The notes below the pieces were generated by a model. It was not told the origin of the DNA, did no database searches, and saw nothing but the letters and a program-made list of their open reading frames with translations. This document shows positions 1,624 through 58,059 of a DNA stretch of 61,204 bases, piece by piece. Source of the DNA: Candidatus Wolfebacteria bacterium (GTDB taxonomy: Bacteria > Patescibacteriota > Minisyncoccia > Phycocordibacterales > EsbW-18); assembly GCA_022616195.1 (NCBI GenBank), contig JAKEFG010000014.1, forward strand, positions 1 to 61,204, in the 5' to 3' direction. Both the position numbers and the translations under genes were made by a program. Each line of letters opens with the position of its first letter. Positions within the stretch are counted from its first letter, which is position 1.

Positions 1624-2616
1624 CTACTCTCCCTTTTTTGCTAACTCCGCGATAGCTTTCTGTGCCTGACCGATACTATCAGCACCCATAAGCCGCAGAA
1701 GAAACGCTTTGTTGTACCCGTCGCCCTTGAGGTAGCTCTTGAAATGTTTCTTCATCAGGTGAAATGACTTATGGGGCAGTAACTCCTGAAAGAGTGTCAG
1801 GTGTTCACCGAGAACCCGTAAACGCTCGGCAAGCGGCGGACGCTCCTCCACTACACCTACACTGCGGCTATTCTCTAATTCGCGCGAATTAGAGAATAGC
1901 CATGGGTTTCCAAAAATTGCGCGTCCGAGCATAATGCCGTCAGCACCGGTCTCCTCTGCCCGCCGCCGCGCGTCAGCCATATCTTCTATATCACCGTTGC
2001 CAATGATAACTGTTGCGCTTCCGAGAGTGTCACGCATCTGTACTGCGCGAGCTATTTCCTCCCAGTGCGCCGGCACCTTGGACATTTCTTTCTTCGTCCG
2101 GGCATGGAGTGCCACCGCCGCCGGCTCCGTTTCCAAAAGCGTCGGTAACCACGTATCAAGTTCATTCTCGTCGTAGCCGATGCGCGTCTTGATTGATACC
2201 GGAAGCCGTGTCGCCTCTTTTGTTGCGCGGATGATTTCCTGCGCAAGCTTCGGTGCCCGTATCATCGCCGCGCCCGCCCCCTGCTTGCAGACGCTCCGGT
2301 CAGGACACCCCATATTGATGTCCACGCCGTCAAACCCAAGCTTCTCCGCAAGCGCTGCCGCGCGCACCATAAGCTCCGGCTCACGACTAAAAAACTGCGC
2401 GACAATAGGACGCTCCGATTCGTCGTACTGCAGGTCTTTGACAAGTACGTCATAGCCACCCTTAAAGAGACCGTCGGCAGAAATAAACTCGGTCCACATG
2501 ACATCCGGCTTGCCATACCTCGCAATGATGCGGCGGAACGCAGCATCGGTCACGTCCGCCATGGGCGCAAGGCAGAAAAACGGCTTCGATAATGTGTCCC
2601 AAAATCCTCGGTTCAT
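1624..2616 (-). CDS. dus: tRNA-dihydrouridine synthase, carrying a 12-codon palindromic insertion
   Basis: 330-aa ORF with CLAPMADVTD, DINMGCP and GRAIFGNPWLF motifs of the Dus TIM barrel. The insertion is at 1866-1901. Confidence 0.9.
   Translation of the reverse strand: MNRGFWDTLSKPFFCLAPMADVTDAAFRRIIARYGKPDVMWTEFISADGLFKGGYDVLVKDLQYDESERPIVAQFFSREPELMVRAAALAEKLGFDGVDINMGCPDRSVCKQGAGAAMIRAPKLAQEIIRATKEATRLPVSIKTRIGYDENELDTWLPTLLETEPAAVALHARTKKEMSKVPAHWEEIARAVQMRDTLGSATVIIGNGDIEDMADARRRAEETGADGIMLGRAIFGNPWLFSNSRELENSRSVGVVEERPPLAERLRVLGEHLTLFQELLPHKSFHLMKKHFKSYLKGDGYNKAFLLRLMGADSIGQAQKAIAELAKKGE
1866..1901. repeat. Palindromic element, variant 2 (GGCTATTCTCTAATTCGCGCGAATTAGAGAATAGCC), inside dus
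   Basis: Perfect 36-nt palindrome. The 32-nt core is shared with the copies at 12837-12868 and 13185-13220. Confidence 0.9.
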
Positions 2617-2671: not shown

Positions 2672-3523
2672 TCATTCGTTTTCTATTTGCGTATTAGTGT
2701 CGCGTTCCAATTTATAAAACACTTTGTTCCCGTAGCGCAAATCAATGTAGTCAACTTCAATGAGTCGCCCGTCTTCAAGACGCGTCTTGAGTTCGTTTGC
2801 CCCAAGCACTATTCTTAAATTCTCAAGAATTTGAGAATAGCCGTCGGCGGGGTCAAAGATAATCTCCGCGCCCCCTCTAAGTAACAGCCGGTACTCACGG
2901 TCACCGACAATCGTGAGTTCTACAGGCCCAATGCCAAGCCCCCGTGCCGAAACAACAAAACCGTTCAGTGAACGAAATGCGTCCGGTGCGAGCACTCTGT
3001 CCCCAATCGCACGTGCCGCCTCCGTGACACGGTACACAAACAACGACGCCGATACGTCACTCGCCACTAACGCCGGCGCAAAGATAAACCCGTCTGCATC
3101 AAGTAAAAAACATCGGGTGTCAGAGGCGCAGTATTTGGCAACCTCCTTGCGCTCGGCAACCGTAACCGAAATGGTCGTCAGGTTCTCTACATCAACATCA
3201 ACGTCCTTCACCCGCGGAAACCGCTTGACAATCTCGCGTTCAATGGAAAACCGCGGATACAAGAGAATGTTTCCGCGAGAAAAGAGGTAGAGATAGTGCC
3301 CCCGCACCTTCTCCCGCACCACATCAAGTAGCTGTGGCGACGGTGTGGCGCTGTTTCCGCGCACATTCACTGTGCGGATTGCCGTCGCCTCAACCATGGA
3401 GAGTTGGGAAAGAAGCAGAATGACCGAACCGATGATGGCGAGAAGATATGCCATCCCTTCAATCACAATCTGCCGACGCCGCTGCCGCAGCGTTTGTGTT
3501 CTGATGCGCCGCCTAAGCCGCAT
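2672..3523 (-). CDS. ftsQ: FtsQ-like cell-division protein (N-terminal TM segment plus POTRA domain), carrying a palindromic insertion
   Basis: 283-aa ORF with a basic N-terminus and a TM helix, followed by IRTVNVRGNS...VDVENLTTISVTVAERKEVA, which is typical of POTRA/FtsQ. The element lies at 2809-2840. Confidence 0.7.
   Translation of the reverse strand: MRLRRRIRTQTLRQRRRQIVIEGMAYLLAIIGSVILLLSQLSMVEATAIRTVNVRGNSATPSPQLLDVVREKVRGHYLYLFSRGNILLYPRFSIEREIVKRFPRVKDVDVDVENLTTISVTVAERKEVAKYCASDTRCFLLDADGFIFAPALVASDVSASLFVYRVTEAARAIGDRVLAPDAFRSLNGFVVSARGLGIGPVELTIVGDREYRLLLRGGAEIIFDPADGYSQILENLRIVLGANELKTRLEDGRLIEVDYIDLRYGNKVFYKLERDTNTQIENE
2809..2840. repeat. Palindromic element, variant 1 (CTATTCTTAAATTCTCAAGAATTTGAGAATAG), inside the ftsQ-like gene
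   Basis: 32-nt near-palindrome with one arm mismatch. It is read as YSQILENLRI on the coding (minus) strand. Confidence 0.9.
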
Positions 3524-8367: not shown

Positions 8368-9801
8368 ATGACCAAGGCAGACGAAAAACGCCTCAATGAC
8401 TTGTTTACGCTTATGAATTCTCCGCCGTCGCGTGAGCGAAAGCTTATCATCGGTGCGTATGTGTTTGCCAAGCACGCCCATCGAGGACAAAAACGTCTCT
8501 CGGGAAACGCATACTTTCTCCATACGTACAAAACCGCCCTGACGCTTGCAGGACTTGGTATGGACGCCGTGGCGATTGCCGCAGGGCTTCTTCACGACAC
8601 CATAGAAGACGGACACACGACGGAGAAAGAGCTCCGCAATGAGTTCGGTGACGAAGTTGCGTTCCTTGTTCTGGGTGTTACCAAGCTCGGGCGGCTCAAG
8701 TACCAAGGATTGAAACGACACGTGGAAAGTTTGCGCAAACTACTCCTCGCCATGGCGGAGGATATCCGGGTGCTTATCATCAAACTCGCCGACCGGCTCC
8801 ACAACATACAAACGGTTGGCTACCTGCCCGAAGACAAACAACGGCGCATCGCCCTTGAGACGCTTGAAATCTACGCGCCGCTCGCCCACCGTCTCGGGAT
8901 GAGCACCATCAAGGGCGCGCTTGAGGATTACGCATTCCCTGTCGTCTACCCCGAGGCATACCAAGAAACCGTCAAGCTGTTGGACAAGAAAAGTGCCGAG
9001 TACATTAACCGGCTTGAAAAAATCGCGCGCCGCCTCAAGCGCAAGGTGAGCGAATCACGCATTCGCATCGTCAAAACGGACTATCGGGTTAAACACCTCT
9101 ACAGCTTATATCGCAAGCTCGCCGAGAGCGACAAGAACATTGAAGAGGTGTACGACATCGCCGCCTTGCGCATCATAGTGCCGACCACAGACGCCTGCTA
9201 CCAAGTGCTCGGCATCATTCACACGCTCTACCGCCCGCTTCCCGGCCGCGTGAAAGACTACATCGCGAGCCCGAAATCCAACGGCTACCAGAGTCTACAC
9301 ACCACGGTCTTCGCCGGCGACGGCGGCGTTGTGGAAATCCAAGTCCGCACGCCGGAAATGCACCGCGTGGCGGAATACGGCACCGCCTCGCACGTCAGCT
9401 ACAAAGAGGGCACCGCCGAGCACGCCGAGTGGCTCTCGCGCCTGCGTACCATAACCGACAGCGACGACCCCTTGGGGTTTCTCAAAAATCTCAAGAATGA
9501 CTTTTTGAACGAGCGGGTATTCGTCTTCACCCCCAAGGGTGAGGTGATTGACCTTCCCGTAGGAGCAACACCGATTGATTTTGCCTACGCGGTGCACACC
9601 GACTTGGGGAACCACGTCTCCGCAGCGTTCGTCAACAACAAAATGGCGTCTCTGAACACGCTACTCAAAAACGGTGATATCGTCCGCATAGAAACGCGTC
9701 CGGGAGCGCACCCGACGCACAAATGGCTTGAGACGGCAACAACCAATTTCGCCCAGCGCAAAATTCGCACCGCCCTCAACAAAGAGCGACGCGTTAAATA
9801 G
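8368..9801 (+). CDS. rel: Bifunctional (p)ppGpp synthetase/hydrolase of the RelA/SpoT (RSH) family (HD, synthetase and TGS domains; no ACT domain)
   Basis: HD motif LLHDTIEDG, synthetase region YRVKHLYSLYRKL...DIAALRIIV...GYQSLHT, and TGS region VFTPKGEVIDLPVGATPIDFAYAVH. The start was moved to the ATG at 8368 (MTKADEK), because the upstream part of the ORF crosses a terminator hairpin. Confidence 0.9.
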   Translation: MTKADEKRLNDLFTLMNSPPSRERKLIIGAYVFAKHAHRGQKRLSGNAYFLHTYKTALTLAGLGMDAVAIAAGLLHDTIEDGHTTEKELRNEFGDEVAFLVLGVTKLGRLKYQGLKRHVESLRKLLLAMAEDIRVLIIKLADRLHNIQTVGYLPEDKQRRIALETLEIYAPLAHRLGMSTIKGALEDYAFPVVYPEAYQETVKLLDKKSAEYINRLEKIARRLKRKVSESRIRIVKTDYRVKHLYSLYRKLAESDKNIEEVYDIAALRIIVPTTDACYQVLGIIHTLYRPLPGRVKDYIASPKSNGYQSLHTTVFAGDGGVVEIQVRTPEMHRVAEYGTASHVSYKEGTAEHAEWLSRLRTITDSDDPLGFLKNLKNDFLNERVFVFTPKGEVIDLPVGATPIDFAYAVHTDLGNHVSAAFVNNKMASLNTLLKNGDIVRIETRPGAHPTHKWLETATTNFAQRKIRTALNKERRVK

Positions 9802-11010: not shown

Positions 11011-11829
11011 TTGGATACCAACAACAAAAAACCCATGTCGTTTGACGCTCTACAAGTCGGACAGAAGTTCGGCCCGCACCCATTTTCGGTCAAAAAACTG
11101 TCGCACAAAAAATCTCTCGAGCTCCTCAACCAAAACACTCTTAGCAAAGAGCACATAAACACCCCGTACCTACTCCCTAGTGAGATTTGGGGACATGCGC
11201 GTTTGTTTTCGTCTCTCTTTGGCAAACTGAATGAGATGCTTATAACGACATCTCAATGGGAGATTCATAGCTCCATTCTACCCGAAGAAACTTTGTATGT
11301 AACAGGAACTATAACAAACAGAGAAGAAAATGGGGAGAAAAAAGTGGTAACATTTGAGACCGAGACGCGAGACAAAAACAAACGATTGTTGTTGCGGGCA
11401 AAGGACACACTCCTTTTCCTGCAAAACATAACTGGTTGGAAGTTCAAGGATAAAAAAATACAACCAACACCAGAAGGGCAATTATGTCTAAACCTACCAG
11501 TGAAAGTGTATTTTCGGCACGAATGGGATCCGAGCGTCTGGAAAAACAATATACACACCGATAAATACGCACAGACGCTCGGCTATAAACGAGGGTTACC
11601 CGAATTCACTGTTTTCTTTGATTGGATTTACGTTGCCCTAAAGCCCTTAGTGCCAGATCTAAATAAGAACAGCCTGAGAATTACTCTCCAAAAAATACTG
11701 CCTGTCTACGAAGACGATAGAATCAATATGCAGATATATAGGAATAATAATGAATACTCTATTCATTTCTTGAAGGACAGATATGAACGTATCCTGGCGC
11801 AGGCTTCTTTGATACTAGCACGGGAATGA
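11011..11829 (+). CDS. Hot-dog fold protein, MaoC-dehydratase-like (possibly a double hot-dog)
   Basis: 272-aa ORF. The C-terminal NIHTDKYAQTLGYKRGLPEF resembles the MaoC N.IH.D..A...G motif. The segment is visibly more AT-rich than its flanks. Its stop overlaps the miaA start (ATGA). Confidence 0.5.
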   Translation: MDTNNKKPMSFDALQVGQKFGPHPFSVKKLSHKKSLELLNQNTLSKEHINTPYLLPSEIWGHARLFSSLFGKLNEMLITTSQWEIHSSILPEETLYVTGTITNREENGEKKVVTFETETRDKNKRLLLRAKDTLLFLQNITGWKFKDKKIQPTPEGQLCLNLPVKVYFRHEWDPSVWKNNIHTDKYAQTLGYKRGLPEFTVFFDWIYVALKPLVPDLNKNSLRITLQKILPVYEDDRINMQIYRNNNEYSIHFLKDRYERILAQASLILARE

Positions 11830-12825
11830 AACCAAAACTCCTCGTCATTCTCGGACCGACGGCTTCAGGCAAGAGCACACTTGCCGTAGAGCTCACCAAG
11901 CAGTTTAATGGTGAGGTGATTTCTGCCGATTCGCGACAGGTGTACCGCGGACTTGATATTGGCACAGGCAAGGTCCCACGGGACTCAACCGACGACCAAC
12001 AACTTACAACCAGCGACTATTTTCACAAAGGCATCAGACATCATTTGCTTGATGTCGCGGAGCCAAACGACTATTTCTCCGTCGCCGATTACAAAAAACT
12101 GGCGGATGAAGCAATTCATACGATATATCGTATGAAAAAGCTGCCCATTCTCGCTGGCGGCACGGGGCTCTACGTTCAGGCAGTCGTCGATAACGTCGTA
12201 CCCCCAGAAGTACCACCCAACAAAAAACTCCGTGCTGAACTCGCGGAAAAATCAACGGGGGAGCTCTTCGCGGAACTCAAACGCCTTGACCCGACGCGGG
12301 CGGAAACGGTTGAGCGAGAAAACCCGCGCCGCCTCATCCGCGCCATTGAAATCGCGCGCGCACTGGAGAGCGTCCCCAGTCAAGATATCGCATTCCCCGC
12401 CGATTACAGCACAAGTCCCTATGACATACTCCAAATCGGTCTTGGCGTTCCCATTGAAACACTTACTGAGCACGTTCATGCTCGGGTCATTGAACGCCTG
12501 AAGAACGGGTGGGTGAATGAGGTACAGAATCTTCTTGCCCAAGGTGTTACACCGGAACACCTTGCCGAGTTTGGTCTCGGCTACAGGATTATCGCCTCCG
12601 CCATACAAAAAAACGGGGGGGGACGGAACCTATTCTCAAATTCTTGAGAATTTGAGAATAGGTTCCGAGAAGTGGAATAAGATGGTAGATACGATTACGA
12701 CTGCGGAGCGACGGTACGCCAAGCGCCAAATGCGGTGGTTTAAACGTGACCGGCGCATCCTGTGGTTCAGCCTTGGTGGGACAGAGAAAATCTTGAACGC
12801 GGTACAAAAATTCCTCCAAACATAA
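11826..12825 (+). CDS. miaA: tRNA dimethylallyltransferase MiaA; apparent +1 frameshift at a G8 tract, plus an in-frame palindromic insertion
   Basis: P-loop GPTASGKS, then SADSRQVYRGLDIGT and GGTGLY. The C-terminal YAKRQMRWF motif lies in the +1 frame (ORF 12517..12825). The two frames rejoin if the G-run at 12615-12622 is 7 nt rather than 8. Confidence 0.85.
12624..12667. repeat. Palindromic element, variant 1, extended to 44 nt (CGGAACC-TATTCTCAAATTCTTGAGAATTTGAGAATA-GGTTCCG), inside miaA
   Basis: 21-bp arms with a TG centre. It is read as YSQILENLRI in the downstream miaA frame. Confidence 0.9.
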
Positions 12826-12836
12826 CTGGTCTACAT

Positions 12837-12868
12837 CTATTCCACCACTCGCGCGAATTAGAGGAGGG
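12837..12868. repeat. Degenerate palindromic element, variant 2 (CTATTCCACCACTCGCGCGAATTAGAGGAGGG)
   Basis: It matches the variant 2 core at CTATTC.....(T)TCGCGCGAATTAGAG. It lies between the convergent miaA and arsR-family genes and contains the arsR-family stop codon. Confidence 0.6.
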
Positions 12869-13109
12869 ATACGATGGAGCGGGCCGGTTGTGAAAGTGTC
12901 CCGCCAAGACGGTAAAACACCTGTAAACTTCGCTGCTCGTGTTCCACAATATCCACCGCCGCCAAAAGCGAAAGGTGTTTTGACGTTGCCTTGAGTGAAA
13001 GACCGATTGCATCGGCAACCTCGCCTACCGCCGCCTCTTTCTCATCCTTGAGAAATTTCAGAATGGCGAGGCGCCGCCGGTTTGCAAGCGCTTTGAGCAC
13101 CCGCTCCAT
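12858..13109 (-). CDS. ArsR/SmtB-family transcriptional regulator
   Basis: MERVLKALANRRRLAILKFLKDEKEAAVGEVADAIGLSLKATSKHLSLL is a classic ArsR HTH. I chose the internal ATG at 13109 as the start. Confidence 0.8.
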   Translation of the reverse strand: MERVLKALANRRRLAILKFLKDEKEAAVGEVADAIGLSLKATSKHLSLLAAVDIVEHEQRSLQVFYRLGGTLSQPARSIVSLL

Positions 13110-13184
13110 TCGTACATTACTTTGTATATTACTACTCCGCATACATGCCCTGTGTCTGCCCCGCCACATCTACCCTACCACTAT

Positions 13185-13220
13185 CACTATTCTCTAATTC
13201 GCGCGAACTAGAGAATAGTG
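13185..13220. repeat. Palindromic element, variant 2, intergenic copy (CACTATTCTCTAATTCGCGCGAACTAGAGAATAGTG)
   Basis: 36-nt palindrome with one mismatch, lying between the MGMT-like stop and the arsR-family start. Confidence 0.85.
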
Positions 13221-13265
13221 GATAGCAACACCAAAACAACGCCAAATCTGTGGGTTGCGTTTAAT

Positions 13266-13583
13266 TTACTTGAATTCAAAAAGAATATCGTGGAAGTTTT
13301 TGATTTTGTCGTTCTTGTCTATTTCAATCCCCTCCTTTTTGTAGAGCCGCATTCGCTCCGCGCGATATCGCTGGCTGACCCAGATTCTGCCATCAGCATA
13401 CACAATCCGGTGAAACGGGATGTTTTTGACTCCGGCATCCTCCGCCTTGCTCAAAATATTCGTGATGCTCTGTGCGGCAAGCGCCCCGCCGCCCGCCGCG
13501 CGAGCAAGACGCCCGTAGGTCGTCACCCGCCCGCGCGGGATGGAGAGTGCCCGTTCTACCACCCGTTCGCTAAATGTTTTCAT
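13266..13583 (-). CDS. MGMT-family DNA-binding protein lacking the acceptor cysteine (alkyltransferase-like, ATL)
   Basis: IPRGRVTTYGRLA and NIPFHRIVYADG match the MGMT C-terminal domain, but PCHR is replaced by PFHR. The start was moved to the ATG at 13583, because the upstream part of the ORF overlaps tRNA-Ser. Confidence 0.75.
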   Translation of the reverse strand: MKTFSERVVERALSIPRGRVTTYGRLARAAGGGALAAQSITNILSKAEDAGVKNIPFHRIVYADGRIWVSQRYRAERMRLYKKEGIEIDKNDKIKNFHDILFEFK

Positions 13584-13631
13584 ACTAGGCGGACTGCGTC
13601 GCGCCGTAGGTTCACTACTGCGAACCGAAGG

Positions 13632-13714
13632 CGGAGGGGACAGGAGTCGAACCTGCAAGCCCTTGCGGGCGCCCGCTTTCCAAGCGGGTACCTTACCATT
13701 CGGCACACCCCTCC
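13632..13714 (-). tRNA. tRNA-Ser (anticodon GGA), long variable arm
   Basis: Acceptor GGAGGGG/CCCCTCC, anticodon stem CCCGC/GCGGG with loop TTGGAAA, T arm GCAGG-TTCGACT-CCTGT. Length 83 nt. Confidence 0.85.
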
Positions 13715-16448: not shown

Positions 16449-17015
16449 CTAGAAACTCACTTTCACCGGCTCGGTAGCGACGCTTCCCTCTTCAAGCTCA
16501 AAGAAGTCACGTTTGGAAAAGTGGAACATCCCCGCAATGATGTTGTTGGGAAACACTTCCACCGCAGTGTTGAGGTCACGCACGTTGGTGTTGTAAAAGC
16601 GACGCGCCGCTTGGATTTTGTTTTCGGTGTCCGAAAGCTCGCGCTGAAGCTCCAGAAAATTCTGGTTGGCTTTGAGGTCGGGATACGCTTCGGCAACTGC
16701 GAAGAGCGACTTGAGTGCACCAGCGAGCATGTTTTCCGTTTTGGCAATGTGGGTCGGATTCCCCGACTGCTCCGCGCCCATCGCCGCCGCGCGCGCCTTG
16801 GTGACATTTTCAAACGCCTCACGCTCGTGCGCAGCATATCCCTTCACCGTCTCCACAAGGTTGGGGATGAGATCGTATCGGCGCTTGAGTTGGACATCAA
16901 TGTCCGCCCATGACTCATCGGTGCGATTGATAAAACGAATAAAACGGTTGTATGCGACAATCGCCCAGAAAACGATGAGAACAACAACAGCAAGGAGAAT
17001 ATAAAGAATAGTCAT
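16449..17015 (-). CDS. lemA: LemA family protein
   Basis: N-terminal TM segment, then YNRFI...W.DIDVQLKRRYDLIPNLV...FYN..V..LN, which is diagnostic of LemA. Confidence 0.9.
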   Translation of the reverse strand: MTILYILLAVVVLIVFWAIVAYNRFIRFINRTDESWADIDVQLKRRYDLIPNLVETVKGYAAHEREAFENVTKARAAAMGAEQSGNPTHIAKTENMLAGALKSLFAVAEAYPDLKANQNFLELQRELSDTENKIQAARRFYNTNVRDLNTAVEVFPNNIIAGMFHFSKRDFFELEEGSVATEPVKVSF

Positions 17016-17019
17016 AACA

Positions 17020-17055
17020 TTAGTTATTAGGCGCTAGGCCTTAGGCTTTAGTAAC
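17020..17055. repeat. Heptanucleotide stop array (TAG every 7 nt, x5)
   Basis: TAG starts at 17021, 17028, 17035, 17042 and 17049. It shares the 19-mer TAGTTATTAGGCGCTAGGC with the array at 43385-43403. Confidence 0.85.
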
Positions 17056-27811: not shown

Positions 27812-28534
27812 TCATCCTTCGGCTGATTGATAATCGGTAGAGCCTAGTTGCTGAAAATAGTCGATGGCTTCTTCAGCGTCACCGCTTTCAAATATAGCAG
27901 ACCCGGCAACGAGTTTGTTCACACCTGCCTCCACGAGCTTGGGTGCGGTTTCCTCGTTCACGCCGATGTCAACCGCGATGGTCAGGTCAGGAAACTTCCT
28001 GCGGATAGTTTTCACTTTTTCATAGACGCGCTCATCAAGCTCCGCACCATGGTAGCCAATTCGGTCGTTCCCCATCACTTGCACGAAATCCGGCATGCCG
28101 TGTTCTTTAATAATCCGAAACAGTTCATCGTTCGGTGTGTTGGGCCTCATGCCCCACCCGACCTCCATCTCAGCTATTCTCAAATTCTTGAGAATTTGAG
28201 AATAGCTCCTGGTGGACTCAATGTGAATCACCGTGCCCACAATACCCGCGTGAATCCAGCCATCCAGATACTTCTCCGGCTCGGCAACGAGCATGTCTAC
28301 CTCGACATCAAGCTCGCGCCAGAACGGCAGTCCCTCGTCCTCGCGAACAATTCGCGCGAACTGTTCACTTACCTGTTTGGTCATGTCGTTGTACGGCCAC
28401 GTTGTTGTCGGCGCATAGCTGCCGTTCGCAATGTCTACTTGCACCCGTTCCACCAACCCCTTCACCCGCACCATATGCGCTTCAAGATCGTCAAAATCCT
28501 TTGGAATGATGGCCGGAACAACAGAGACAGTCAT
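27812..28534 (-). CDS. rpe: Ribulose-phosphate 3-epimerase-like TIM-barrel protein, carrying a palindromic insertion
   Basis: 240 aa with VVPAIIP...VQVDIANG and a C-terminal VDIGVNEETAPKLVEAGVNKLVAGSAIF. It sits in an operon-like block with rpiB, gap and tkt. The element lies at 28172-28207. Confidence 0.75.
   Translation of the reverse strand: MTVSVVPAIIPKDFDDLEAHMVRVKGLVERVQVDIANGSYAPTTTWPYNDMTKQVSEQFARIVREDEGLPFWRELDVEVDMLVAEPEKYLDGWIHAGIVGTVIHIESTRSYSQILKNLRIAEMEVGWGMRPNTPNDELFRIIKEHGMPDFVQVMGNDRIGYHGAELDERVYEKVKTIRRKFPDLTIAVDIGVNEETAPKLVEAGVNKLVAGSAIFESGDAEEAIDYFQQLGSTDYQSAEG
28172..28207. repeat. Palindromic element, variant 1 (AGCTATTCTCAAATTCTTGAGAATTTGAGAATAGCT), inside the rpe-like gene
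   Basis: 36-nt palindrome with a TG centre. It is read as YSQILKNLRI on the coding (minus) strand. Confidence 0.9.
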
Positions 28535-38140: not shown

Positions 38141-38150
38141 ACTCTTTCAG

Positions 38151-38192
38151 TATACCCAGCACCACTTTTATATAAAAGTGGTGCTGGGTGTA
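38151..38192. repeat. GTATACCC-type hairpin (36-nt perfect palindrome ACCCAGCACCACTTTTATATAAAAGTGGTGCTGGGT)
   Basis: It lies in the 87-nt divergent spacer between the GT4 start and the gdh start. Confidence 0.85.
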
Positions 38193-42959: not shown

Positions 42960-43373
42960 TTACTCCTTCTTCGAGCGCTTCGCGCCGTAACGGCTCCGTG
43001 CCTGCTTACGCTTCCCCACGCCCTCCGCGTCAAGTTTGCCGCGGACAATGGTGTAGCGCACGTTAATATCCTTTACGCGTCCCGCGCGCACAAGCACAAC
43101 CGAGTGTTCCTGCAGATTGTGCCCCATGCCGGGAACGTATGCAGTTACTTCCATACCATTTGTAAGCCGCACACGAGCGATCTTACGCACCGCTGAGTTC
43201 GGCTTGCGAGGATTTGTAGTTGTTACTTTCGTACAAACACCTCGCTTGAATGGGGACACATAACGACTTGGGCGATTCTTGAGCGTATTAAAACCACGGC
43301 GAAGCGCCACCGCTTTTGACTTCTTGCGGGCTTGTTTTCTTCCTTTTCGCACCAGTTGATTGACGGTTGCCAT
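42960..43373 (-). CDS. rpsL: 30S ribosomal protein S12
   Basis: 137 aa with [12 protein letters not shown] and PKKPNSA-like RKPNSAVRK. Confidence 0.97.
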
Positions 43374-43382
43374 ACTCCAGAC

Positions 43383-43418
43383 ACTAGTTATTAGGCGCTA
43401 GGCACTAGGCCTAACGCC
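43383..43418. repeat. Heptanucleotide stop array upstream of rpsL
   Basis: TAG starts at 43385, 43392, 43399 and 43406. TAA starts at 43412. Confidence 0.85.
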
Positions 43419-55215: not shown

Positions 55216-55527
55216 GACCCTAGTTTACTCCTCCCTATGTGTGTTGTGAAGAACTTATGTGCACAAGCCGCCGCGTGGCGGCTTGGTATTTCCGAGAAGA
55301 GTATAACAGGTTACAACACTACCACCAACACCCCACTGCAACGACACCCATTCGGGAGTCTAACTCCCCACAGAGCCCCGATCGTCTCCACAAACGATTT
55401 CAATGCGGGATAGAAACTTTCTTCCCGCGCATCGCCGCGCTTGCCGGCATCAAAAACCTCTTTGAGATAGCCGGCAATAATGCTTTTGCCCTGTTGTGCC
55501 TCTTGTTTTGAAGCCACTGCAGGTTCA

Positions 55528-55571
55528 GTATACCCCGCACCATTTTTAAATAAAAATGGTGCGGGGTATAC
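55528..55571. repeat. GTATACCC-type hairpin (GTATACCCCGCACCATTTTTA-AA-TAAAAATGGTGCGGGGTATAC)
   Basis: 21-bp perfect arms. Overlapping ORFs on both strands read the same KNGAGYT peptide here, as expected for a palindrome. Confidence 0.85.
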
Positions 55572-55626
55572 CCGCTCACTAGTGCTAATGCGAACGGAGC
55601 CGTCGGAGAGTGTTTCTCCAACGGCT

Positions 55627-56040: not shown

Positions 56041-56068
56041 GCTAAGCGCTAGGTGCTAGCGGCTAGGT
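56041..56068. repeat. Heptanucleotide stop array downstream of the SleB-like gene
   Basis: TAA starts at 56043. TAG starts at 56050, 56057 and 56064. Confidence 0.8.
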
Positions 56069-56946: not shown

Positions 56947-56992
56947 GTATACCCAGCACCGCTTTTGCGAACAAAAGCGGTGCTGGGTATAC
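56947..56992. repeat. GTATACCC-type hairpin (GTATACCCAGCACCGCTTTTG-CGAA-CAAAAGCGGTGCTGGGTATAC)
   Basis: 21-bp perfect arms, in the divergent spacer between the sleB-like and sod genes. A partial extra arm, TATACCCC, lies at 56917-56924. Confidence 0.85.
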
Positions 56993-58029: not shown

Positions 58030-58059
58030 CGACTAGCCGCTAGCATCTAGCGCCTAGCC
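58027..58059. repeat. Heptanucleotide stop array beginning with the stop codon of the 57787..58029 ORF
   Basis: TAG starts at 58027, 58034, 58041, 58048 and 58055. Confidence 0.9.

Follow-up and report, generated by a model that had tools for sequence, protein, structure and literature searches.

Short DNA palindromes feature in several described systems. The ArsR/SmtB repressor family includes the metal sensors SmtB, CzrA and CadC, whose operators are arranged 12-2-12, as well as the non-metal members HlyU, NolR and PagR, and ArsR operons are autoregulated. Rickettsia palindromic elements (RPEs) are a repeat family translated within unrelated proteins; they are ~100–150 bp long and always add a segment. 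The chromosome-organising sites parS (bound by ParB), Noc NBS, SlmA SBS and MatP matS are high-information palindromes conserved inside coding sequence, and sites of this kind, like that of the archaeal ArsR-like centromere binder AspA (pNOB8), lie in or next to the binder's gene. REP/BIME repeats with RAYT (REPINs) are short (20–40 bp) dispersed palindromes that have several variants per genome and flank a small gene (REP classes: PMC3733652). Coding palindromes of up to 284 bp occur in mitochondrial genes of Nematomorpha (PMC6649704). Here we describe a family of 32-bp palindromes that resembles each of these systems in part. We found it in a 61,204-nucleotide (nt) contig of Candidatus Wolfebacteria (assembly GCA_022616195.1, contig JAKEFG010000014.1; hereafter ‘the window’), where one copy lies inside an ftsQ-like gene:

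2672–3523, minus strand: ftsQ-like gene, 283 residues, host of a palindrome copy (POTRA_1, FtsQ profile, ortholog alignment)
2809–2840: variant-1 palindrome (TCAA/TTGA type) with one mismatch between its arms, overlying FtsQ codons 229–238

Small ArsR/SmtB-type proteins probably have their cognate DNA sites in these palindromes, and in ftsQ such a site overlies coding sequence, a reading that draws on comparisons of the sites, of the genes beside them and of the proteins that host them. An initial annotation of the window, made from its letters alone, had reported a palindromic element at 2809–2840, and we confirm that it is a genuine repeated element. It reads CTATTCTTAAATTCTCAAGAATTTGAGAATAG, with 15-nt arms, one mismatch (T8, where C is expected) and a CA centre on the plus strand. 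It lies within the open reading frame (ORF) 2672–3523, where frame 2 of the gene strand yields the peptide YSQILENLRI (residues 229–238 of 283). The ORF has a weak match to POTRA_1, just below threshold, and its profile matches E. coli FtsQ structures (E 6e-4).

The window contains six full copies and one decayed copy of the palindrome. An exact pattern (up to three mismatches) and a degenerate pattern each match five times, with 0.00 matches expected in shuffles of the window, and a looser family pattern matches six times (0.01 in shuffles); the shuffles thus rule out chance or codon coincidence. Family members are 32-bp palindromes with 14-nt arms, a 4-nt centre, the core ATTCY-NNN-ATTC-NNNN-GAAT-NNN-RGAAT and the ends CTATTC...GAATAG. 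Copy density is ~1 per 10 kb. Solitary half-sites are essentially absent from the window: the 13-nt arm (up to two mismatches) matches 12 times, 10 of these matches are palindrome arms, and the others equal the chance level of 1.4. All six full copies lie between 1868 and 28205, in the first 28 kb of 61, and none in the other 33 kb. An intergenic copy between ftsQ and dus represents a third variant, and similar variants adjoin ArsR-like genes in loci L004 and L132:

2630–2661: palindrome copy, third variant (ACATTCCAACATTCTATAGAATGTTGGAATGT), intergenic, 11 nt after the ftsQ stop codon and 14 nt before the dus ATG

We scanned a species-representative genome set with the core pattern, and counts given below are of the matches listed, which come from more than 118 stretches. 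The listed matches are overwhelmingly from Patescibacteria of many classes, across which the arm sequence itself, beyond its pairing, is conserved. A few metagenome-assembled genomes (MAGs) among them are labelled Bdellovibrionales, Elusimicrobia, Micavibrio or ‘Gammaproteobacteria’, labels that are unconfirmed. Of 122 scorable copies, 34 fall inside ORFs and 88 are intergenic, with neighbouring genes arranged in tandem (55), convergently (19) or divergently (11). A scan of 2.9 million viral contigs produced just two weak matches, and we rejected a phage origin. Nothing on the motif came up in literature searches, some of which used the sequence of the arms as a string, and the family is apparently undescribed.

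The palindromes are closely associated with a small ArsR-type gene. Listed copy pairs spaced ~280–356 nt apart always flank such a gene, which occurs in 34 of 119 listed palindrome loci and is almost always bracketed by one upstream and one downstream copy. The window has this arrangement as well:

12858–13169, minus strand: ArsR/SmtB winged-helix gene of clade B (64.5 bits to NF033788, cutoff 55); start probably at the Met at ~13109
12837–12868: decayed palindrome over the stop codon of the ArsR-like gene, positioned as are clade-B downstream copies elsewhere
13187–13218: variant-2 palindrome with one mismatch, placed like an operator upstream of the ArsR-like gene

A further 16 clade-B genes, identified in metagenomes, are also mostly bracketed by palindromes, and in nearly all of the 34 and 16 loci the upstream copy lies 5–120 nt before the aligned start of the ArsR-like gene. 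The downstream copy takes one of several positions. In clade A it forms the last 32 nt of the ORF (…SILKFLRILE*), supplying the TAG stop and encoding the last 10 residues. In clade B it provides the last 11 nt (…SIL*), with the TAA in its left arm, and in other ArsR-like genes it lies 0–50 nt past the stop. Palindrome bracketing was not found for two distant high-GC ArsR genes from metagenomes. A metagenome scan for the context of the cassette returned no relative above 72% identity.

The ArsR-like proteins are 83–90 residues long, match Pfam HTH_20 and HTH_5, and have HlyU, NolR and CadC as their best PDB matches, with SmtB matched as well. Clade A is also weakly similar to AspA (E 6e-4). Four protein subclades with differing recognition helices correspond to four palindrome variants in samples that share ancestry, and in the listed loci the solo copies of a genome are of the same variant as the copies beside its ArsR-like gene. 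The window encodes a clade-B protein only, and clade B goes with variant 2. The variant-1 copies in ftsQ, miaA and rpe belong to the clade-A type, and a clade-A paralog is therefore predicted elsewhere in the genome: outside the 61-kb contig, with the C-terminus …ILKFLRILE* and bracketed by TCAAATTC-T..A palindromes.

The partner is a bona fide ArsR/SmtB family member, and the palindrome just upstream of its gene recalls the autoregulated ArsR operons. Several features nevertheless set the system apart from described ArsR/SmtB repressors. The site is 14-4-14 rather than 12-2-12, the ArsR-like proteins lack metal-sensing residues (Cys/His motifs), and the stop codon of the gene is itself overlapped by a second copy. 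Many near-perfect copies are scattered elsewhere, a quarter of them inside coding sequence.

The initial annotation implied that the element had been inserted into FtsQ, adding 10–11 residues. This is contradicted by the ortholog alignments and by the structure. Across 21 FtsQ homologs there are no gaps at peptide 229–238, and N235 is invariant. The segment matches conserved residues in 20 FtsQ orthologs, with the family consensus x-L-x-N-L-x-x-x-L (e.g. LAVALENLRVLL, YDHLLGNLTIVL); these orthologs include L122 (43% identity) and L129, which have no palindrome there. A profile alignment places the E. coli FtsQ helix TMKRLARFVEL in the same columns, and an AlphaFold2 model (mean pLDDT 85.7) predicts a helix at 229–241 with pLDDT ~90, a confident native helix rather than a surface loop or dispensable appendage. 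Together, the gap-free alignments, the E. coli helix match and the modelled helix rule out an insertion: the palindrome is superimposed on native C-terminal helix codons, with no residues added. In practice, the ftsQ copy should not be taken for an inserted peptide module.

In two relatives of ~67% identity one arm of the site persists: in L119 the right arm is identical and 16 of 32 positions are self-complementary, while L121 keeps the left arm, with 20 of 32. The TTA mismatch of the ftsQ site is common to all three close lineages, so a near-canonical ftsQ copy predates their split. The more distant FtsQ gene of L128 (4236–5081, P0005 lineage, 38% identity) has a right half-site alone, GAGAATTTAAGAGTA, with the same synonymous choices as the window's copy and no left arm. 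This half-site may be left over from a far older ftsQ palindrome, or it may be coincidental. The L128 contig also carries a dus palindrome at 8982.

The copy in rpe is an overlay of the same kind:

27812–28534, minus strand: rpe (ribulose-phosphate 3-epimerase), host of a variant-1 copy
28174–28205: variant-1 palindrome, read as YSQILKNLRI, over the native helix that follows the HIES motif in Rpe

The window's HIES…GWG stretch of Rpe has 35 residues, as it does in 92 of 120 orthologs, and is gap-free against human RPE. We redid this test with 120 close orthologs, as alignments to PDB entries only had misled for Dus (see below).

Several statements of the initial annotation about reading frames hold. 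The rpe-like ORF reads YSQILKNLRI in the CA-centre orientation, opposite to that in ftsQ; the 2-nt centre accounts for the E/K difference between the two peptides; and the same frame-2 peptide appears in three genes (ftsQ, miaA and rpe) and in both orientations. The other two frames of the ftsQ element are closed by stops as it claimed, though not both by TGA: frame 1 has TGA, and frame 3 has TAA because of the arm mismatch. Its report of YSQILENLRI in miaA is true only of the +1-frame ORF at 12517–12825. The ORF at 11826–12647 stops at the element's own TGA, and the claim needs one base removed because a G8 run (~12617–12624) splits the frames. The shared frame itself is largely forced: of the three frames of a 32-nt palindrome, frame 2 alone is self-symmetric, and it alone stays open whichever way the element points.

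At orthologous sites, the symmetry is kept in a compensated way. In rpe, the window has CAA/TTG (YSQILKNLRI), L149 has GCA/TGC (YSAILQNCRM) and L150 has ACA/TGT (YSTILQNCRI), while L151 and L148 have decayed forms. Amino-acid pairs (Q…L, A…C, T…C) therefore shift together as reverse-complement codons. These residue pairs are unusually clean evidence that symmetry at the DNA level dictates protein sequence, which matters for reading covariation and for annotating ‘insertions’ in Patescibacteria genomes. Nematomorph palindromes likewise shape encoded peptides with preferred frames, although on a larger scale and with no associated binder. The orthologous miaA insert of one relative (relative A) carries a perfect palindrome of another variant, and all eight differences from the window are pairwise compensated. 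At the positions that the search pattern leaves unspecified, 93% and 85% of 130 listed copies show complementarity, against 51% and 37% in shuffles. Symmetry also runs on into the variable flanks in 53 of 84 listed copies, by a mean of +2.1 nt where 0.33 is expected.

These observations suggest how the system may operate. The ancestral FtsQ helix (…L-E-N-L-R-I/V) would have been compatible with frame 2 of the palindrome, so that the fold could be kept while the DNA carries a full site. A clade-A ArsR-like dimer, predicted to be encoded outside the 61-kb contig, would bind the copies in ftsQ, miaA and rpe, and the clade-B protein (12858–13169) would bind the variant-2 copies in dus and at its own upstream site. 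Binding may control transcription that runs on into the next gene, which for the ftsQ copy is dus, with its start 193 nt away. Alternatively, binding could have a chromosome-level role, as at other intragenic palindromic sites (parS, NBS, matS). We saw no adjacent ParA/ParB-type partner and no spreading or positional clustering beyond the placement of six copies in the first 28 kb, unlike the described organisers, and such a role is putative. New copies may arise by insertion (miaA, dus) or by overwriting arm-like sequence (ftsQ, rpe). The arms could then be held alike by selection for symmetric binding, by hairpin-templated repair or by both.

Several observations weigh against cognate sites for ArsR-like proteins. 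The link between protein and palindrome consists only of adjacency and covariation, among related genomes that are non-independent samples. The factor for variant 1 is a prediction, as the window encodes the clade-B protein alone. The copies are far more perfect than typical operators, and their symmetry often extends into variable flanks, which a pure protein-site model does not predict. We found no clear promoter preference in the positions of the listed copies, and no common theme among the listed downstream genes save the ArsR-like gene and a Cys-rich zinc-ribbon protein. Finally, a 438-nt cassette indel, like the miaA and dus insertions, resembles the behaviour of mobile elements.

The last point leads to the main rival, which is perhaps also a complement: a selfish REP/MITE-like repeat in which palindrome, ArsR gene and palindrome constitute the master unit. 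Solo copies would spread by inserting or through short-patch gene conversion, and each genome would homogenise its own. On this account the ftsQ copy is a conversion patch, tolerated since the native helix reads similarly. We consider it unlikely, though it partly overlaps our preferred explanation, as the protein could still bind the repeats. It is favoured by two copies that, unlike those in ftsQ and rpe, are true insertions:

1624–2616, minus strand: dus (tRNA-dihydrouridine synthase; PF01207, 2.7e-63), host of a variant-2 copy
1868–1899: perfect variant-2 palindrome with a GCGC centre, located in dus and reading LFSNSRELENS from the LF of the conserved NPWLF motif
11826–12825, plus strand: miaA, in two frames split at a G8 run just upstream of the palindrome
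12630–12661: palindrome copy, variant 1, within a 17-residue miaA insertion; symmetry extends to 42 nt (12625–12666, GGAAC...GTTCC)

The dus copy is inserted in a linker. The palindrome-free Dus orthologs L122 and L129 are 10–13 residues shorter directly after NPWLF/W, and the difference of merely 3–4 residues from 1vhn and DusB, a PDB-only comparison, is misleading. Five listed loci have a dus copy at the same NPW[LF]-LF position, with differing variants. In MiaA, the GLGYR…RRYAKRQ stretch is 38 residues long in 106 of 120 orthologs, 51 in the closest ortholog (P0023, 68% identity) and 55 in the frame-corrected window sequence. The insertion, +13 to 17 residues relative to the usual length, is thus shared with the closest ortholog only. 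RPEs are similar in that the miaA and dus copies add 10–17 residues in loops or linkers. They differ in that the unit here has a length of 32 bp, no residues are added by the copies in ftsQ and rpe, and a cognate winged-helix gene is linked; the ftsQ copy has neither of the features that define RPEs, extra residues and a loop or appendage location.

The extended symmetry of the miaA palindrome and the cassette indel are also in keeping with a selfish repeat. The miaA copy at 12625–12666 is a 42-nt perfect palindrome. Compared with the L123 ortholog, it has gained about 12–13 nt on the left, including GGAAC and the G8 run, in mirror image of GTTCC in the right flank, and hairpin-templated copying could have produced such growth; this gain and the flank symmetry described above both fit a selfish repeat. 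We also considered a target-site duplication at the miaA insert. An 8-nt direct repeat, CGGAAAAA, is present in L123, but it misfits the 39-nt size difference and we treat it as a coincidence. A 438-nt segment of the window (~12829–13266), comprising the decayed palindrome, the ArsR-like gene and its upstream palindrome, is absent from relative A (L123 1028–1031), where the stop codons of miaA and the MGMT-like gene are 2 nt apart. The neighbouring MGMT-like proteins of the two genomes are 94% identical and the adjacent MiaA proteins 68%. Divergence is strongly uneven across the 438-nt junction.

Also in its favour are the near-identity of the window's copies, where orthologous sites in other genomes hold other variants, and the canonical left arm of the ftsQ copy, which is not templated from the mutated right arm. 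The same subclade and variant are also found in MAGs labelled Saccharibacteria and Elusimicrobia (labels unconfirmed). Against a selfish origin, the sole associated protein is an 83–90-residue winged helix that has no catalytic domain. No transposase, RAYT or recombinase is adjacent in the loci examined, no target-site duplications were found, and matches in viral contigs are limited to the two noted above. Moreover, the ftsQ and rpe copies have no indel, and the rpe and dus sites occupy the same codon positions over deep divergence, which suggests a host-level function. The likeness to REP elements is limited in corresponding ways: the gene flanked here encodes an ArsR/SmtB winged helix and not an HUH/Y1 transposase, the ends lack the GTAG/CGTC head, copies are not extragenic only, and orthologous intragenic copies are conserved over deep divergence.

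A role as an mRNA hairpin – a processing, stability or pausing signal in operons whose stem reflects an RNA-binding partner – is highly unlikely. The copies are predicted to fold into very stable hairpins, with energies of −18.5 to −31.6 kcal/mol and z of −3.7 to −7.7 (for the ftsQ copy, as RNA or DNA, −18.5 to −20 kcal/mol and z −3.7 to −5.2). In addition, changes are compensated, stems extend into flanks, and some intergenic copies are flanked by A-runs and T-runs like bidirectional terminators. However, the arm sequence itself is conserved over many classes, and the variants follow differences in the helix with which a DNA-binding protein recognises its site. The ftsQ sense-strand RNA has a C·A mismatch (G·U in the antisense), and the copy lacks a U-tail. 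As an intrinsic terminator the ftsQ copy was rejected: the stop codon comes 134 nt after it, its stem is AT-rich, a T-run is missing, and a terminator scan calls only the intergenic copy at 2630–2661. Nor is it a known RNA family, as an Rfam scan of the window gives only three tRNAs above threshold.

Still less likely, with a probability we regard as close to negligible, is a DNA uptake signal accumulated by biased uptake and recombination: Patescibacteria are thought to depend on DNA uptake, and an indel-free overlay with a preferred reading frame recalls the co-evolution of uptake sequences and proteome in Pasteurellaceae and Neisseria, but half-sites are essentially never solitary here (13-nt arm singles are at chance level, where uptake sequences are over-represented as single copies in one orientation), density is low, several variants coexist in one genome and the link to the ArsR-type gene is tight.

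Returning to cognate sites of ArsR-like proteins, the distribution of the family could, tentatively, reflect a lineage-wide Patescibacteria system in which ArsR-type binders and 32-bp sites co-diversify and sites are fixed in rpe, dus, ftsQ and miaA, either as a global regulatory or chromosome-organising network or as a new, transposase-less kind of selfish element made of site and binder, spreading by insertion and conversion. To our knowledge, Patescibacteria have tiny genomes with very few recognisable regulators, and their gene control and chromosome organisation are almost unknown. A palindrome–binder pair present in many classes, with sites at the same housekeeping codons, would if true give a concrete, testable handle on their biology. 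In a second relative (relative B) all three orthologous sites have decayed or are missing (ftsQ 20/32, rpe 24/32, no miaA insert), a decay that would fit the loss of a trans-acting factor.

A Cys-rich zinc-ribbon protein of ~560–600 residues (N-terminus …CQNCK..F.IE..DF.FYEKI.VPPPTFCP.CR…) recurs among the listed loci, with a palindrome 5–24 nt before its start. We identified it in L013 (1–1111 and 1438–3126), L019 (3985–5676), L038 (2991–4781), L046 (2819–4555) and L100 (516–2225). It sometimes shares the downstream palindrome of the ArsR gene, and is possibly a regular target of the system.

Two gene models of the window call for comment. In miaA, an A8 C G8 run spans 12608–12625; removal of one G (~12617–12624) restores full-length MiaA, whose C-terminus is carried by the +1-frame ORF at 12517–12825. 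The frame split may be an artefact of assembly; otherwise the frameshift is genuine or the gene is a pseudogene. A tRNA gene (13632–13714, minus strand) overlaps the 5′ part of the long ORF 13266–13706, and the MGMT-like gene probably starts at ~13583, at a Met that matches the 105-residue ortholog.

Cumulative GC skew is monotonic along the window. We also identified a second, unrelated palindrome family of ~42–46 nt, with three intergenic copies (38146–38192, 55524–55572 and 56947–56992) and the consensus TATACCC[AC]GCACC..TTTT…AAAA..GGTGC[TG]GGGTATA. Short repeats rich in CTAGG/TTAGG/GCTAG (e.g. TTAGGCGCTAGGCCTTAGGC) are present in both orientations at 17008–17046, 43372–43410, 56041–56066 and 58033–58058.

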